DNA of 64,000 nt from Candidatus Poribacteria bacterium. GTDB taxonomy: Bacteria > Poribacteria > WGA-4E > WGA-3G. The notes under the pieces were generated by a model. That model saw only the letters and a program-made list of their open reading frames with translations. It was not told the origin of the DNA and searched no databases. Position numbers and translations under genes: made by a program. Location of the stretch: assembly GCA_965198235.1 (NCBI GenBank), contig OZ240248.1:3488001-3552000 (forward strand). The letters run 5' to 3'. Shown here one piece after another: positions 1 to 16,707 of the stretch (within the stretch, counting starts at the first letter, position 1; the number at the start of each line of letters is the position of its first letter).

Positions 1-206
1 TGGCACAACAACTCGCCTTCTTTGAAGGGATCGCTGGCGATTGGCGTTATGTGCTACAATGGCGTGAAAACATATATAAAGTTACGCCAGAGGACATCAT
101 GAGAGTCGCAAAAACCTATTTCACAAAAAGCAACCGCACCGTCGGCACACTCATTAAGAAAGAGGCAGTAGCACCCGCCGGTGAAGATACGGAGGGCAGC
201 GAATAA
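1..206 (+). CDS. C-terminal fragment of an M16 (pitrilysin-family) peptidase, cut by the window start
   Basis: Frame from nt 3 reads AQQLAFFEGIAGDWRY...KVTPEDIMRVAKTYFTKSNRTVGTL*, a typical M16 C-terminus. Its TAA overlaps the ATG of the next M16 gene (TAATG). Confidence 0.75.
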   Translation, partial: AQQLAFFEGIAGDWRYVLQWRENIYKVTPEDIMRVAKTYFTKSNRTVGTLIKKEAVAPAGEDTEGSE

Positions 207-2353
207 TGAAGAAACGAACCTTTACCGGGCTGGTCGTCGCGACACTGGTCGCCTGTCTCATTGTAGGGGGTATCCCATCTACATTTGCCAGATCACACGA
301 AGAACTTACCTTTGAACCGATTGAGTTTAAACCTCCCGTGCCAGAGAAGCGAATGCTCTCAAATGGGGTGACGCTCTACCTTCTTGAGGACCATGAGTTA
401 CCACTGTTTAACATCAACGGGTTGATTAAAACTGGGAACATCTACGATCCAGCGGATAAGGTAGGTTTATCATCAATATTCGCTACTGTTATGCGAACCG
501 GCGGTACGGTGTCGCGTGAACCGGACATGTTGAACGAGGAGCTGGAATCTATGGCGGCTTCCGTTGAAGTCGGCATGTCGCGTGAATACGGGACAATTAA
601 CCTCTCAACACTTGCAGAAGACATCGAAAAAGGATTGGAAATCTTTGCGGATGTACTCAGGAACCCAGCCTTTCGCGAAGATAAATTGGAACTCCGTAAG
701 CAGCAGGCGGTTGAAGGCATCCGTCGGCGAAACGATAATCCTATCCAACTTGCGTGGCGCAATTTCTCTGCGCTGCTCTACGGAACCGACCATCCATTCG
801 GGTGGTATTCTGAAATTGAAGGCATAGAGAGTATCACTGCTGACGATCTCAAAGCGTTTCATGCGAAATATTACCATCCCGACAACATGAGGCTCGCGAT
901 TACCGGCGACTTTGAAACGGAAACTTTGATTGCACAACTGGAAAAGGTCTTTGAAGGATGGGAGTCGGCGGATATTTCCTTTCCCGACGTTCCAACCGTA
1001 GATCCGACTCCGAAACCGTCCGTTAATTATATCTTCAAGGATCTCCCGCAGTCAGTGATGTTAATCGGACATTTCGGTATCAAACGCACACCCGATTTCC
1101 CCGATTTCTTCGCGCTCCGTGTCATGAACGATATTCTCGGTGAAAGTGGTTTCACGTCTCGTCTCATGAGGGAAGTGCGTGAGAAACACGGGCTCGCCTA
1201 TATGGTGGGTAGCATAATGCAGACCACTTATTACACGAATCCAGGGGAATGGTTCGCTTATTCGCAGACCCGTACTGAGAAAACGGCGGAGGCGATTTCA
1301 CTCATTATTGATGTCGTCAAAGGTCTCCGAGATACACCTGTACCGGAAGCAGAGTTGCAGCGCACCAAAGATTCGCTCATCAATTCGTTTGTCTTTGGGT
1401 TTGAGAGCAGCGCGCAAATCGCCTTCCAGCAGATGATGCTCGCTTATCGAGATTATGCACCAGACTTCCTTGAAACCTATACCGATAATATTGCCAAGGT
1501 CACGGCGGCGGATGTGCAGGCAGTCGCACAAAAGTATCTCCATCCGGACGCACTTACGATTGTCACTGTCGGCAATAAAGCCAATTTTGACCGATCTCTT
1601 GATGAGTTCGGTGAGGTTAACGAGATTGAAATAAAGCAACCGGAACCCCCGCCTGCGGAACCGATGCCTGAAGCGAGTGAAGGAGACATGGCGAAAGCCA
1701 AGGGGATTATCGCGGCGGCAGTCGATGCCTATGGTGGACTTGAAAAGCTGCAAGCCGTCAAAAACATTGTTGTGGAAGGTCGCGCTACAGCCAATTCACC
1801 GATGGGACAGATGAACTTGGATGTTAAGGGATATCAAGTCTATCCGGACAAACTGCGGCAGGACATCAAGATGCCTCAGGGCGAAATGAGTTACGCCTTC
1901 GATGGCACCTCTGGATTTGCGATGACCCCTATGGGACCGCAACCTTTACCTCCTGAAATGACGGCTTCCATGAAAGATGGCATTTTCAGAGAACCGATTT
2001 GGTTGCTCGCGAGTCTTATGCAAGACGATAGTTCGATCCAATACGCTGGCACAGAAGAGGTAATGGGAAAATCCGCTGCGATTGTGCTTGTTCCGCAGCC
2101 TTCAGGTGAAATACTCAGAGTTTTCATCAGTGAAGAGACACACTATATCGTGAAAATGGGATTCCGTGAGACAGAACAGGGCGTTGTTGTCAATAAAGAA
2201 ACGCTCTTGGACGATTATCGCGATGTGGATGGTGTCAAAGTGCCGCATCATATTCAGCAAAATGTAGAGGGTGAACTCTTCACCGAAACTCGTTTAAGCA
2301 GCGTCATGTTGAACGCAGAACTCGACGATTCGCTGTTTCAGGAGCCAAAGTGA
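206..2353 (+). CDS. Secreted M16 peptidase-like subunit (no HXXEH) with an extra C-terminal LolA/outer-membrane-lipoprotein-sorting-like domain
   Basis: Signal peptide, LSNGVTLYLLEDHELP, and SRLMREVREKHGLAY (R/Y pair). A Pro-rich linker is followed by AYGGLEKL...DYRDVDGVKVPH. Confidence 0.85.
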   Translation: MKKRTFTGLVVATLVACLIVGGIPSTFARSHEELTFEPIEFKPPVPEKRMLSNGVTLYLLEDHELPLFNINGLIKTGNIYDPADKVGLSSIFATVMRTGGTVSREPDMLNEELESMAASVEVGMSREYGTINLSTLAEDIEKGLEIFADVLRNPAFREDKLELRKQQAVEGIRRRNDNPIQLAWRNFSALLYGTDHPFGWYSEIEGIESITADDLKAFHAKYYHPDNMRLAITGDFETETLIAQLEKVFEGWESADISFPDVPTVDPTPKPSVNYIFKDLPQSVMLIGHFGIKRTPDFPDFFALRVMNDILGESGFTSRLMREVREKHGLAYMVGSIMQTTYYTNPGEWFAYSQTRTEKTAEAISLIIDVVKGLRDTPVPEAELQRTKDSLINSFVFGFESSAQIAFQQMMLAYRDYAPDFLETYTDNIAKVTAADVQAVAQKYLHPDALTIVTVGNKANFDRSLDEFGEVNEIEIKQPEPPPAEPMPEASEGDMAKAKGIIAAAVDAYGGLEKLQAVKNIVVEGRATANSPMGQMNLDVKGYQVYPDKLRQDIKMPQGEMSYAFDGTSGFAMTPMGPQPLPPEMTASMKDGIFREPIWLLASLMQDDSSIQYAGTEEVMGKSAAIVLVPQPSGEILRVFISEETHYIVKMGFRETEQGVVVNKETLLDDYRDVDGVKVPHHIQQNVEGELFTETRLSSVMLNAELDDSLFQEPK

Positions 2354-3129
2354 AAATGCTAAATTTACGCGTCCGCTATTTTCAAGACAGCACCCCGGTA
2401 GATGTACCGTGCCGTGAAACTGCTTTCATTCGGCGTGAGTTTGAAATGCCATTACCAGTTGAGGAGACCGCTTTGGTACTCGTTGATCTGTGGAACGTTC
2501 ATTTCATCGAAAGTTGGATAGAACGTGCAGCACAGGTAACGAAGGAATGTGTCGTCCCTGTGCTGAATGCTGCGCGGGAAGCGGGATTAACGATTGTGCA
2601 TGCCCCCTCTCCGTCGGTAGCAGAGCAGTATCCGCAACTCAAGCGGCACAAGCCGCCTGAACCGTCTATCCCTTCAGCATGGCCTCCCTCCAATTTCCGA
2701 AGTCGCGAGGGGGACTACGCCGTTTATCGCGGTCCTCGGAGTCAACCTCCCAGTATCGATATCCATTGGAACAAACTCGCATCGCAACTCTCTGTCTCCC
2801 CTGCGATTGACGTGAAACCGGAAGAATTTGTTATCGCGACGGGACAGCAGTTACATGAGCTGTTAGAGGAGCGGGGGATCTTACATCTGCTCTTCGCTGG
2901 CTTTGCAACAAACTGGTGTGTATTAGGCAGGGATTATGGGATTCGCTCTATGGCACGGTATGGCTATAATATCATCTTGTTCCGTGATGCCACAACCGGT
3001 GTGGAGTTTCCTGATACCTACGATAACCTGTTCACAACAGAGATCGCCATTCGGGAGGTGGAACAACAGTACGGCTTTAGTGCATCAAACGCCGATTTCT
3101 TTGAGGCAGTTGAGAAACTTCCAGCATAG
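2350..3129 (+). CDS. Isochorismatase-family cysteine hydrolase
   Basis: ALVLVDLWN and GFATNWCV motifs; GTGA overlap with the upstream gene. Confidence 0.8.
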   Translation: MKMLNLRVRYFQDSTPVDVPCRETAFIRREFEMPLPVEETALVLVDLWNVHFIESWIERAAQVTKECVVPVLNAAREAGLTIVHAPSPSVAEQYPQLKRHKPPEPSIPSAWPPSNFRSREGDYAVYRGPRSQPPSIDIHWNKLASQLSVSPAIDVKPEEFVIATGQQLHELLEERGILHLLFAGFATNWCVLGRDYGIRSMARYGYNIILFRDATTGVEFPDTYDNLFTTEIAIREVEQQYGFSASNADFFEAVEKLPA

Positions 3130-3242
3130 AGTTCTACCGATGGACTCCTATGTTTTACTGTTAGGCGAGGTCTCCGTGCCTCGCCTCTTTTCGTACGGAC
3201 TACCAACGGACTATGGATGTAACGCACGAGGAATGATTCCAC

Positions 3243-14483: not shown

Positions 14484-15164
14484 CTATACGAAGGCGAAGA
14501 CTCGCGTCGGTGCTCCAGAACTGTGTGCCAACTTTAGCGGGGCAAGTACCACATAGAAATGCGTCGGCAATTGGCTTAAATTGCACAGATCTTCAACATG
14601 TGGAATACCAGCGCCAAGAAAAACGAGATGCGCAGGCGGTAAACCATCGTGCAAGGGTGGATGTCCTGCCACTGAGTCGATGCTACATGCATCTGTCCCA
14701 ATAACCTTTATGCCTATTTTGACGAGTCGTTCAGCAGCATCCTCACTAAAGCCGATCCACTCCCGGTTGAAGTTGTCCTGATAGACGAATCTGTCCATTC
14801 CTGTCCGCATAAAGACGATGCTGCCTTCTGGAATCTCGCCATTTTCGGCTATCCATGCTTCAATATCTTCTGCAGTCACAGCGTCGTTCGGTTTCTTGAT
14901 CGCGGAAAAATCCATCAACACGGCATGTCCGGTCAGTTTCTCTTTTGGGATTTCGGCGATAGTTGCGCCACCGGGGTACATTAAACAGGGGGCATCCATG
15001 TGCGTAGAGTAGTGTCCGGACGTGTCAATACGGCTTTCAAAGTAGCCATCTTTTTCCAACGTTGCTTGGTCATAAATTTTGGCAGGATCAATCGGCAGCT
15101 CGCATGGACTCTTTTCATCAACCACATAAGACAGATCCAGCACGTTTTGAAAGTCAAGGTGCAT
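14484..15164 (-). CDS. Cyclase family protein (kynurenine formamidase-like metal hydrolase)
   Basis: HYSTHMDAP, GTDACSID and SSGAPTRVFA motifs. Confidence 0.9.
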   Translation of the reverse strand: MHLDFQNVLDLSYVVDEKSPCELPIDPAKIYDQATLEKDGYFESRIDTSGHYSTHMDAPCLMYPGGATIAEIPKEKLTGHAVLMDFSAIKKPNDAVTAEDIEAWIAENGEIPEGSIVFMRTGMDRFVYQDNFNREWIGFSEDAAERLVKIGIKVIGTDACSIDSVAGHPPLHDGLPPAHLVFLGAGIPHVEDLCNLSQLPTHFYVVLAPLKLAHSSGAPTRVFAFV

Positions 15165-15220
15165 TTTATATTGTTTCTCCTTCCTACAAACATGTCACCC
15201 TTACAAGGCTTATATGTAGT

Positions 15221-15541
15221 GTGATAGACCCCGCCCTAAAGGGCGAGGCTTCCGCGATTTCTGCGGAAGCTTTCATGCGATCAACGACCGCTGCTTTCTC
15301 TGAAAGACTTATGCAGCCTACTGCAACAGACGCTACCCCGACTGCGACACAAAAGTGTCCTTACGAAAAGTTTGTAATGCGTCATGTCTCGCAACAATCG
15401 TGTTGGGCCTTGAGTCCGCTATCCACGAAAAACGCATGTCGAGCTGCGATTTATTGATAGATGACCGTTTTCAGAGCTTTACACTATAGGAACGCTATCA
15501 AGAGCTTCGCAACTACAGCCTCTATAGCAACCTTACACTCT
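15221..15541 (-). ncRNA. Putative structured ~320-nt RNA ending in a TnpB omega/reRNA-like scaffold
   Basis: Lies downstream of the perfect promoter with no credible ORF. Inverted repeats at 15469-15476/15538-15545, 15248-15270 (GCTTCCGC/GCGGAAGC) and GACAC-AAAA-GTGTC. Confidence 0.5.
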
Positions 15542-15547
15542 GAAATT

Positions 15548-15576
15548 ATTATAGCAGATTCAACAACTTGTGTCAA
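15548..15576 (-). promoter_or_regulatory. Perfect sigma70 promoter inside the IS200/IS605-like element
   Basis: Minus strand TTGACA-caagttgttgaatctgc (17 nt)-TATAAT. Confidence 0.85.
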
Positions 15577-15725
15577 GAAAAAACAGCGTCTACATCTCCA
15601 AGCTAAAGCATGGAGTTTTGACGCTGAAAAGGTTGATAACACATCTCCTTGAAATATTCAAGTAACTTGTATTGTCAAACCAGGGCTATTTAGTTTTAAG
15701 GTTTTTGTCCGATTTACGCGAAGAG

Positions 15726-15870
15726 TCGCGAGCTGGGGGAAATCCGAAGAAATGCCCTATCAATCGCAGAAATCCGCAGAAATGCCCTATCAATACGCAG
15801 AAATACCCTATCAAAAACCCCAAGCAAAAACCCCAAGCAAAAACCCCAAGCAAAACACTCGCTCCTACAG
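15726..15870. repeat. REP palindrome interrupted by a 121-nt modular A/C-rich insert
   Basis: TCGCGAGCTGG[15737-15857]CTCGCTCCTACAG. The intact form is the reverse complement of 59655-59680. Confidence 0.8.
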
Positions 15871-15936
15871 GGGATCCGCTCACAAAATTATTAAACGACT
15901 ACAGATAGGTTGCGCGGGTTTATCGAGCATCTGCGA

Positions 15937-16707
15937 TCAGGCATCATAGAAATAGTTCAATACAGTGTTATGCAGGACTCCATTTGTCGCTATTAATGAA
16001 GCGGTATCTTTCGTAATGGCTTCTCCTTGTATATCCGTTACCTTCCCACCGGCTTCCCTCACGATAACGCTGATGGCGGCGATGTCCCAGACGCTAATCG
16101 CCGCTTCAATGACAGCATCCACCCTTCCAGAAGCCACGAGGTGATACATGTAGAAATCGCCAAAGCCTCTCGTGCGTGCAGCGTCGGTGATAAGGTTATA
16201 GATGCCGGGAAAGGTGCCCTTCTCTACGAACCACTTCAGTCCACCGTGGCATACCATTGCATCTTTGGGTTGCGTCACGCTGGAAACGGTTATCGGTTCG
16301 CCATTCAGGAAAGCACCGCTGCCTGCTTCCGCATAGAGGAGTTCGTTCAAAAGTGGTGCGTTGGAAACGCCGAGGATAAGTTCTTCACCTTTCATCAAAG
16401 CAATCTGTGTGCCGAAGATCGGAATTTTTCGGATGTAATTCTTTGTAGCATCAATCGGATCAATAATCCAGACATAAGGGGAATCCCCTTCTTCGATGCC
16501 GTACTCTTCACCTAATAAACCGTGGTCGGGAAATGCCTGTTTGATGGTTTCTCGGATAATTTTTTCCGCCCCTCTATCGGCAAGGGTTACCGGCGTTTCG
16601 TCGGCTTTCAGTTCTACTTTCATGGTGTCGCCGGTGTAGTAAGCGGTGATGATTTTTTCAGCGTTTTTCGCCGCTTCCAACGCGACGGTTAAAAATTGAC
16701 TGGGCAT
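15937..16707 (-). CDS. hisN: Inositol monophosphatase family, probable histidinol-phosphatase
   Basis: WIIDPIDATKNY, RTRGFGDFYMY and WDIAA motifs match the HisN-type IMPase subfamily. Confidence 0.75.
   Translation of the reverse strand: MPSQFLTVALEAAKNAEKIITAYYTGDTMKVELKADETPVTLADRGAEKIIRETIKQAFPDHGLLGEEYGIEEGDSPYVWIIDPIDATKNYIRKIPIFGTQIALMKGEELILGVSNAPLLNELLYAEAGSGAFLNGEPITVSSVTQPKDAMVCHGGLKWFVEKGTFPGIYNLITDAARTRGFGDFYMYHLVASGRVDAVIEAAISVWDIAAISVIVREAGGKVTDIQGEAITKDTASLIATNGVLHNTVLNYFYDA

Follow-up and report, generated by a model that had tools for sequence, protein, structure and literature searches.

The window (64,000 nucleotides of the genome of a sponge symbiont, Candidatus Poribacteria, G000:C1:3488001-3552000; positions without a contig refer to it) carries on the minus strand, at 15221-15635, a gene-less IS200/IS605 element (PATE) of 415 bp. 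The element is inserted at TTAT without target duplication, exists in further copies, and bears a promoter next to its left end (LE), followed by the sequence of a structured RNA, about 320 nt long and reaching exactly to the right end (RE). We suggest, with a probability of about 0.75, that the element is non-autonomous and that its RNA would be a guide used by TnpB in trans. The RNA is composed of a 5′ domain, M1, and a 3′ domain, M2. The parts of the element are as follows, all on the minus strand:

15636..15639: TTAT target / transposon-adjacent motif, directly 5′ of the LE, as read in the sequence
15584..15635: LE with an imperfect subterminal hairpin (15626-15584), then a T-run
15548..15576: sigma-70-type promoter TTGACA-17-TATAAT with TG before the -10, 12/12 matches
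15368..15541: M1, structured 5′ transcript domain of about 174 nt, doubly pseudoknotted (covariation and helix counts)
15221..15367: M2, TnpB omega-RNA (reRNA) scaffold of about 147 nt ending ..GGTCTATCAC (covariation and matches of its model, R1)
15229..15248: RE subterminal hairpin CCTCGCCC-TTTA-GGGCGGGG, 4 of its 8 pairs changed on both sides among siblings
15221: last base of the RE, ...GAAGCCTCGCCCTTTAGGGCGGGGTCTATCAC
15201..15220: flank read as guide, ACTACATATAAGCCTTGTAA; its position is observed, and its putative role follows the TnpB mechanism in passages of PMC10055086

Ends, interior and copies of the element

The sequence-only reading had described a protein-free mobile element of IS200/IS605 type, with TTAT, a left-end hairpin, a promoter, an ORF-free interior and a right end in this order on the minus strand. 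Each of these parts is found where it had been placed. The LE hairpin is built of outer arms CAGCGTC/GACGCTG and inner arms CTCCA/TGGAG and is kept among siblings with compensatory changes. The hairpin of the RE appears to double as the DNA-level recognition hairpin of TnpA and as the last stem of the omega-RNA. The RE is followed by ACTACATATAAGCC... and, 57 nt on, by the ATG of the next gene. TTAT and the flank ACTACATATAAGCCTTGTAA together make up the empty donor joint.

Between TATAAT and the RE there are about 320 nt without a conserved ORF. ORFs of at least 35 aa vary in place and length among 18 siblings, none being conserved, and 4 of the 18 have no ORF of at least 40 aa. We class the element as a PATE on three grounds: no protein-coding gene lies between its ends; the subterminal hairpins at both its ends are similar to the ones in resident tnpA/tnpB elements; and it is inserted 3′ of a fixed tetranucleotide with no target duplication, no terminal inverted repeats and a scarless empty site. 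An IStron or group I intron was considered and rejected, as the intron families of Rfam are without a match both in 14900-16000 (cut-off E<=10) and in four related loci (cut-off E<=1).

The siblings sharing both ends that the sequence-only reading expected exist in this genome and in others. A second copy in the same genome (G000:C1:2116447-2116866) is identical in 419 of 420 bases, the sole difference being a G-U instead of a G-C pair in the terminal hairpin. A third copy (4641657-4642069) has 77% identity, and a remnant of the 3′ part, without the LE, lies at G000:C1:1567546-1567677. Some part of the element is matched at E<=1e-5 in 57 of 65 genomes of the genus, and 15 full-length siblings of 69-84% identity are spread over 11 of the 64 other genus genomes. 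Among the aligned full-length copies, TTAT precedes 18 of 18 and GGTCTATCAC terminates 17 of 18, and the flanks are unrelated.

The downstream flank of the window copy is found in 63 of 65 genomes, and the junction ..TAT|ACTAC.. is uninterrupted in all 11 relatives' loci inspected. The tetranucleotide there is TTAT in six, CTAT in three and GTAT in one; at the remaining locus the junction is intact and a different insertion of about 130 bp lies a few bases further on. Thus, the two flanks of the predicted empty site, GTGTTAT|ACTACATAT, are indeed contiguous in relatives. The element is more than a chance arrangement: other copies have exactly its boundaries, and the empty site that was predicted exists in relatives.

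The 3′ domain M2 and the resident TnpB proteins

The most conserved part of the element is the omega scaffold, M2, which ends exactly at the RE. Its fold comprises 44 pairs, derived from an alignment of 23 copies (A1). In this fold 97% of the pair cells are paired, versus 37-50% with slid partners. At 15 pairs both sides have changed, a number reached by 0 of 500 shuffles. Several invariant G-U pairs fit the minus strand only.

Covariation thus supports the fold. The covariance model of M2, R1, finds 28 matches at E<=1 in the genome. The three PATE copies score 164-170 bits and the remnant 96 bits. In 13 resident tnpB genes (403-409 aa) the 3′ end is matched over the full model length at 42-51 bits (E 4.5e-10 to 5.9e-5), the alignment being trustworthy for the last ~65 model positions only and mis-registered in its 5′ half. 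These 13 matches overlap the last ~90 nt of the tnpB frame and stop at GGTCTATCAC. Weaker matches fall on four other tnpB ends and seven tnpB-less places. An nhmmer profile likewise matches at positions 88-151 and places the M2-like part right at the gene end in 53 of the 80 foreign tnpB loci and in 11 of the 30 own ones. Farther 5′, a likeness of M2 to tnpB ends is seen by eye and is unscored (..GGGGTAGC.., ..AGG-TAAG-hairpin.., GTTGA..).

These model matches show M2 to be homologous, in sequence and predicted structure, to the putative omega-RNA region of the resident 403-409-aa tnpB genes. The guide-RNA scaffold that had been proposed to abut the RE is thus borne out by covariation and by matches to resident tnpB 3′ ends with the same GGTCTATCAC. 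M2 has the marks of an omega-RNA: its end coincides with the RE boundary at 15221, the same register as in every sibling and in the scaffolds borne by tnpB; it is homologous to the tnpB 3′ end; and its secondary structure is conserved. It derives from the last ~110 nt of the tnpB frame together with the RE. Compared with the tnpB-borne scaffold, one local hairpin is absent and 5′ stems are added. Since the scaffold differs in this way, its compatibility with the resident TnpB is assumed.

The genome has 35 PF07282 (TnpB) matches and 6 PF01797 (TnpA) matches, and all six TnpA frames are open. The 13 tnpB genes end with ...GCTTCTGC..GCAGAAGCC-hairpin-GGTCTATCAC and therefore share the RE of the element. 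Upstream they have TTAT, a similar LE and a similar TTGACx-17-TATAAT promoter, and they are without tnpA. One of them, P0001 (403 aa), matches the ISDra2 TnpB structures 8bf8/8ex9/8exa with E 2.6e-44 over residues 21-372. It contains PF07282 and PF01385, and its three RuvC motifs, GFDFG, FEDLN and DRDENAA, were read and aligned. Both TnpB and TnpA are thus present elsewhere in the genome in apparently intact form. An element with an open 138-aa TnpA and a 376-aa TnpB lies at about C1:118.6-120.4 kb; its LE is 89% like the window LE over 37 nt. Over the LEs adjoining tnpA/tnpB elements of this genome the likeness is 82-89%.

In the species collection, 65 loci from (Candidatus) Poribacteria contain the nearest TnpB relatives; the next ones are at most 34% identical and belong to other phyla. 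Full M1+M2 elements occur in 14 other genomes, and a close TnpB is also found in 12 of these 14, which is weak evidence, as most genomes have the TnpB family in any case and related genomes do not count as independent. The genome G057 has a copy, but its best TnpB match (E 1.9e-82, ~43% identity) is not a close one; in G008 a copy is accompanied by two TnpB fragments only.

Promoter and transcription

The promoter consists of TTGACA (15576-15571) and TATAAT (15553-15548) and was scored against the sigma-70 consensus, which is assumed to be valid for the host phylum. A scan of 14900-16000 gave five promoter-like sites (shuffles average 1.7), only one of them with 12/12 matches. The -10 is TATAAT at equal spacing in 16 of 18 siblings, and tnpB elements bear the same kind of LE-proximal promoter.

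Words of this stretch occur in eight RNA runs from two studies. Four of the runs were mapped; all are metatranscriptomes. In two sponge metatranscriptomes there are contigs with 0 differences over 15322-15497 (176 nt, depth 1011) and 15322-15532 (211 nt, depth 226). Further contigs begin at 15220, and the exact coverage altogether is 15220-15532. The contigs carry neither ends nor strand, and their depth, given below, is a sum over like copies and strains:

15206-15511, bins within the element and at its RE: depth 217-3131
14900-15205, flank gene: depth 53-127 in one run, 0 in the other
15546-15579, promoter bin: depth 0-4

Immediately 3′ of the promoter the depth is 140-3131. The coverage fits a start near 15541 and a high abundance, for contigs lacking ends and strand. 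Many contigs break at 15220/15221 and continue into differing sequences, as is expected if the same RE occupies many sites in the community. In the second study the coverage is limited to 15308-15375 (depth 188-676), and by sequence comparison the contigs run on into another M1 variant. The claim of the sequence-only reading that a long structured RNA is transcribed is consistent with the RNA contigs, which match exactly over 15220-15532 and are nearly absent from the promoter.

The 5′ domain M1

M1 begins with a stack of helices P1-P2-P3 (15541-15473). The loop of P3 (15513-15508) pairs with 15448-15443 (GUUGCG/CGCAGC), and this pairing covaries. A further helix, P4, crosses P1-P2, and the 3′ subdomain is formed by P5/P6. 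Part of the structure was given by RNAalifold on an alignment of 19 sequences (A2); helices were then added by eye and counted. There are 29 pairs in 7 helices, 97.6% paired versus 32-46% with slid partners, a control that is somewhat flattering since the structure is partly derived from the same sequences. At 14 pairs both sides have changed. The z-score of the single-sequence fold is -2.15, unremarkable on its own. The extra 5′ domain that had been noticed at 15469-15545 is therefore real and structured; it equals helices P1-P3, and M1 extends beyond it, to 15368. No Rfam family matches M1 in 14900-16000 or in four related loci. A tRNA-like or tmRNA identity was rejected, as ARAGORN calls none.

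The fold counts bear on whether the element is alive. It could be a decaying internal-deletion derivative of a tnpB element, mobile or recently so and transcribed, with an RNA that no TnpB uses. The origin of M2 from the last ~110 nt of the tnpB frame plus the RE would suit such a history, and so would the LE-less remnant at G000:C1:1567546-1567677, the copy-bearing genome without a close TnpB and the other with TnpB fragments only. However, siblings of 69-84% identity in 11 genomes keep 97% of the M2 and 97.6% of the M1 pair cells paired, with 15 and 14 pairs, respectively, changed on both sides; the promoter is kept in 16 of 18 copies, and the RNA depth in the metatranscriptome contigs is far above that of the flanks. 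Such conservation would not be expected in dead sequence, and we consider decay unlikely. Another candidate, an interior of decayed tnpB coding sequence, was rejected: when the element was compared by blastx with the genome's 35 TnpB frames, no match was better than E 1.6, and the M1 profile found only PATE copies; M2 does stem from the tnpB 3′ end.

We return to the reading of a working guide RNA and to where M1 occurs. In its own genome an nhmmer profile of M1 finds the three PATE copies only, the next match having E 0.11, and the model of M1, R2, finds the same three. R2 hits occur in 29 of 112 family genomes, in 3 of 6 genera. They are present in 24 of 99 own-family genomes (plus the window's genome), whereas the 51 genomes searched from eight further families of the phylum have none. 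In the species collection, 17 stretches contain an exact 20-mer of M1, and each of them is from Poribacteria.

With filters off, R2 matches at full length in the 5′ parts of gene-less elements with other interiors or REs: L054 with 56.5 bits, L153 with 41.7, L072 with 31.9 and L091 with 27.3 bits, and likewise the element at G000:C1:2520613-2520987, whose RE is ..GGGTGCTATGAC, with 30.6 bits. The tnpB element L020 gives no match (12.8 bits, partial). M1 is thus common to PATEs with three different RE types. M2 follows directly after M1 in 48 of 61 M1 hits, these tallies being locus hits, with some places counted repeatedly; the remaining 13 come from six places upstream of a DUF368 gene, each counted twice, and from one fragment. 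In tnpB loci M1 is found in 0 of 80 foreign and 0 of 30 own ones. By R2, M1 is confined to elements without tnpB and to fragments of these.

A tentative possibility is that M1 is an undescribed doubly pseudoknotted domain that marks trans-acting omega-RNAs, is carried on at least three TnpB/RE classes, and would give the cassettes what RNAs made in cis have. It might provide, for instance, stability, a processing signal, or a second contact by which the RNA would win TnpB from its own RNA. If this is true, M1-bearing elements would be RNA-level hyperparasites of TnpB.

The same distribution could be read in another way, with the M1+M2 RNA as a decoy or regulator that soaks up TnpB or acts on the expression of tnpB/tnpA. 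The exclusive presence of M1 on tnpB-less elements (0/80 and 0/30 tnpB loci), its sharing by PATEs with three RE types and the abundance of the RNA in metatranscriptome contigs are compatible with this. Against it, the exact flank junction needed by a guide is kept in every copy, and no complementarity to tnpB leaders is seen by eye. A decoy or regulator seems to us hardly probable at all, and a guide RNA remains our reading in what follows.

Proposed mechanism

The guide, the trans loading and the cutting of the joint are modeled on the mechanism of IS605 TnpB as given in passages of PMC10055086.

Step 1: The RNA is transcribed from the LE-proximal promoter. The transcript would run past the RE, so that the flank would supply a guide of 16-20 nt.

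Step 2: TnpB produced from other elements would load the RNA of the element in trans. We suggest that M1 acts as an accessory RNA module specific to tnpB-less guide cassettes. As for its role, we lean towards stabilising the RNA or helping it to compete for TnpB.

Step 3: TnpA made elsewhere would excise the element, which would rebuild the joint of TTAT and guide. TnpB would then cut this joint, and recombination with a sister copy would restore the element.

Comparison with known systems

The original haloarchaeal PATEs, of Haloquadratum, are reportedly short and non-coding and have palindromic ends of IS200/IS605 type.

The closest published relatives in kind are in Geobacillus stearothermophilus. 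According to passages of Meers et al. (PMC10055086), its PATE-like elements 'often encode omega-RNAs' that need TnpB in trans, and they are mobilised by TnpA in trans. In the same passages they contain no protein gene, and their two ends, as in our case, look like the LE and RE of IS605-family elements resident in the genome. Since PATEs with trans omega-RNAs are already in print there, the kind itself is known, and the sequence-only reading overstated the novelty of a guide-RNA cassette working in trans. The Poribacteria family differs in belonging to another phylum and in spanning many species; an internal promoter of their own and a large RNA domain on the 5′ side go unmentioned in the PMC10055086 passages.

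ISDra2 TnpB with its reRNA (8bf8, 8ex9, 8exa, 8h1j) provides the structural reference. The 403-aa TnpB of our genome is its homologue over the full length (E 2.6e-44). In both systems the scaffold ends at the RE, the flank gives the guide (putatively so in the window), and the TAM is the target motif of TnpA. Passages of PMC12558985, citing Nety et al., describe an RNA that overlaps the tnpB 3′ end and is cut out of the tnpB transcript. In contrast, the window element lacks tnpB, carries a promoter of its own, and its RNA is longer by 174 nt on the 5′ side.

Within Rfam, a match is obtained for the Halobacterium sotRNAs alone. RF02656 (sot0042) is matched weakly at 15228-15382, over the full model length and with the terminal hairpin in common, at 20.2 bits (E 0.0079) versus a gathering score of 88, so that M2 is not a member of RF02656. 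The sotRNAs (RF02656/RF02657) are equated with TnpB omega-RNAs in passages of PMC12558985; unlike M2, they lie inside archaeal tnpB genes. A PATE of C. difficile, reported in bioRxiv 10.1101/2023.11.20.567912, is likewise short and non-coding with palindromic ends. However, its ends are those of an IStron (group I intron), whereas the window element has no intron match. The term 'PATE' is absent from PMC9956272, bioRxiv 10.1101/2022.10.12.511977 and PMC12558985. Among the papers listed by a search for Poribacteria with TnpB, IS605 or IS200, none contains the name Poribacteria.

The new points are M1 and the split host promoter described below. TnpB is the ancestor of Cas12 and is among the commonest prokaryotic genes. 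The element addresses the evolutionary question of the separate encoding of guide RNA and nuclease, as in CRISPR. It represents a well-delimited natural guide-RNA cassette, as we read it, which has its own promoter, multiplies without a nuclease, has been kept in many species and reaches high abundance in situ. The cassette also bears M1, a putative accessory RNA domain seen on orphan guides of this kind alone. If M1 aids trans loading, it would show, by a natural example, how omega-RNAs expressed separately could be designed for TnpB editors.

Neighbouring host genes

The gene downstream of the element and the remains of its promoter are located on the minus strand as follows; the upstream neighbour gene encodes an inositol monophosphatase family protein.

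14484..15164: putative cyclase gene (PF04199), Pfam E 3.9e-34, 57 nt beyond the RE
15636..15661: displaced half of a promoter-like site of the cyclase gene, TTGAAT (15661-15656), spacer, TAT

The other half of the -10, ACT, is at 15220-15218. In a relative with the empty site the promoter-like sequence is whole, TTGAAT-17-TATACT with TG before the -10 (L097 1475-1503). The insertion between TAT and ACT has therefore displaced the native -35 and half of the -10 by 415 bp upstream. A scan of 14900-16000 found no terminator-like site. With the -10 split and no such site after the RE, transcription from the element probably replaces the native cyclase promoter via read-through, and as a side effect of the insertion the element would now drive this gene. 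The sole RNA contig crossing the RE, 15112-15249, has 29 letters inside the element, short of the 31-letter rule, and is not counted. The insertion in a host -10 box illustrates how such elements can rewire host promoters.

M1 also occurs alone, with 82-84% identity, upstream of a gene for a DUF368 membrane protein in six genomes. The gene is present in 65 of 65 genomes, and M1 is found in 6 of the 31 upstream regions inspected. M1 as a riboswitch or leader of the DUF368 gene was rejected, as it is present in just these 6 of 31 regions and sister species carry other sequence. From sequence comparison we read the DUF368-upstream M1 as an element fragment that probably became fixed in one small clade.

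These host genes bear on a further alternative, namely that the element is a mobile cassette of promoter and leader whose outward transcription drives or tunes the host gene beyond each insertion, with the omega-like fold incidental. The split predicted -10 of the cyclase gene, with no terminator after the RE, could be taken in its favour, together with the promoter+M1 fragments directly upstream of the DUF368 gene. Similar promoter-bearing fragments are seen upstream of other genes in L154 and L155, and in a relative, L064, the same LE and promoter drive a small ORF. However, the copies sit in unrelated contexts and their flanks share nothing, and the most conserved part is the omega scaffold, which ends precisely at the RE. 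We thus find a tuning cassette quite improbable and keep to the guide-RNA reading. The DUF368 case is derived, since in the closest sister species that place is taken by a native promoter and a truncated upstream gene.

Elements and fragments sharing modules with the gene-less element

In one related genome (G022) the left end (LE) and promoter are the same as those of the gene-less element of the window; downstream of them come a ribosome-binding site and a roughly 100-aa ORF. Both RNA modules, the structured 5′ domain (M1) and the TnpB omega-RNA-like scaffold (M2), are absent after this promoter, and the ORF stands in their place. The ORF is a small protein cargo carried by the LE/promoter chassis of the element.

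L064, about 1100-1615, minus strand (G022): small-ORF element

The window's own genome (G000) harbors additional gene-less elements at C1:2520613-2520987 and C1:400650-401300, each with a promoter-like site of its own and an omega-like scaffold terminating in ..GGGTGCTATGAC, which is the right end (RE) of the ~370-aa TnpB family. The former also has an M1-like domain.

Five M1+M2 copies (L148-L152) are found in G071, a genome of a different genus of the same family. The central stem of M2 is remodelled in these copies, their promoter-like site is weak (TTGATT-17-GACTAT, read by eye), and one of the five has a 25-nt insertion within M1.

Promoter and M1 also occur without LE, M2 or RE upstream of the gene of a DUF368 membrane protein in six genomes (L106, L107, L110-L113), in place of a truncated glycosyltransferase-like gene that sister species have there. 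The promoter-M1 segment is probably a fixed fragment of such an element that now serves as the 5′ region of the gene.

Leader of the resident tnpB elements

In the tnpB elements of G000 encoding 403-409 aa, a leader of ~100 nt separates the LE-proximal promoter from the tnpB ATG.

L020, about 2590-2790, minus strand (G000 tnpB locus): example of the tnpB leader

The leader comprises the helix GGCAGACA/TGTCTGCC and a GNRA hairpin, as well as a 7-nt segment, the complement of which sits just 3′ of the helix. This 7-mer varies in nearly every tnpB copy with the complementarity kept. An Rfam search with the leader matched no family.

Surroundings of the insertion site

The intergenic stretch at 15700-15870 of the window, upstream of the element, is a member of a family of short interspersed or tandem repeats, for which BLAST gives 230 matches in G000 (E<=1e-3). 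RNA contigs are heaped at 15784-15851, with the depth of up to 1940.

The locus of G008 orthologous to window 15220/15636 (L101) carries a different insertion of ~130 bp in the same intergenic site; the TTAT|ACTACAT junction is intact there, and the insertion lies a few bases downstream of it.
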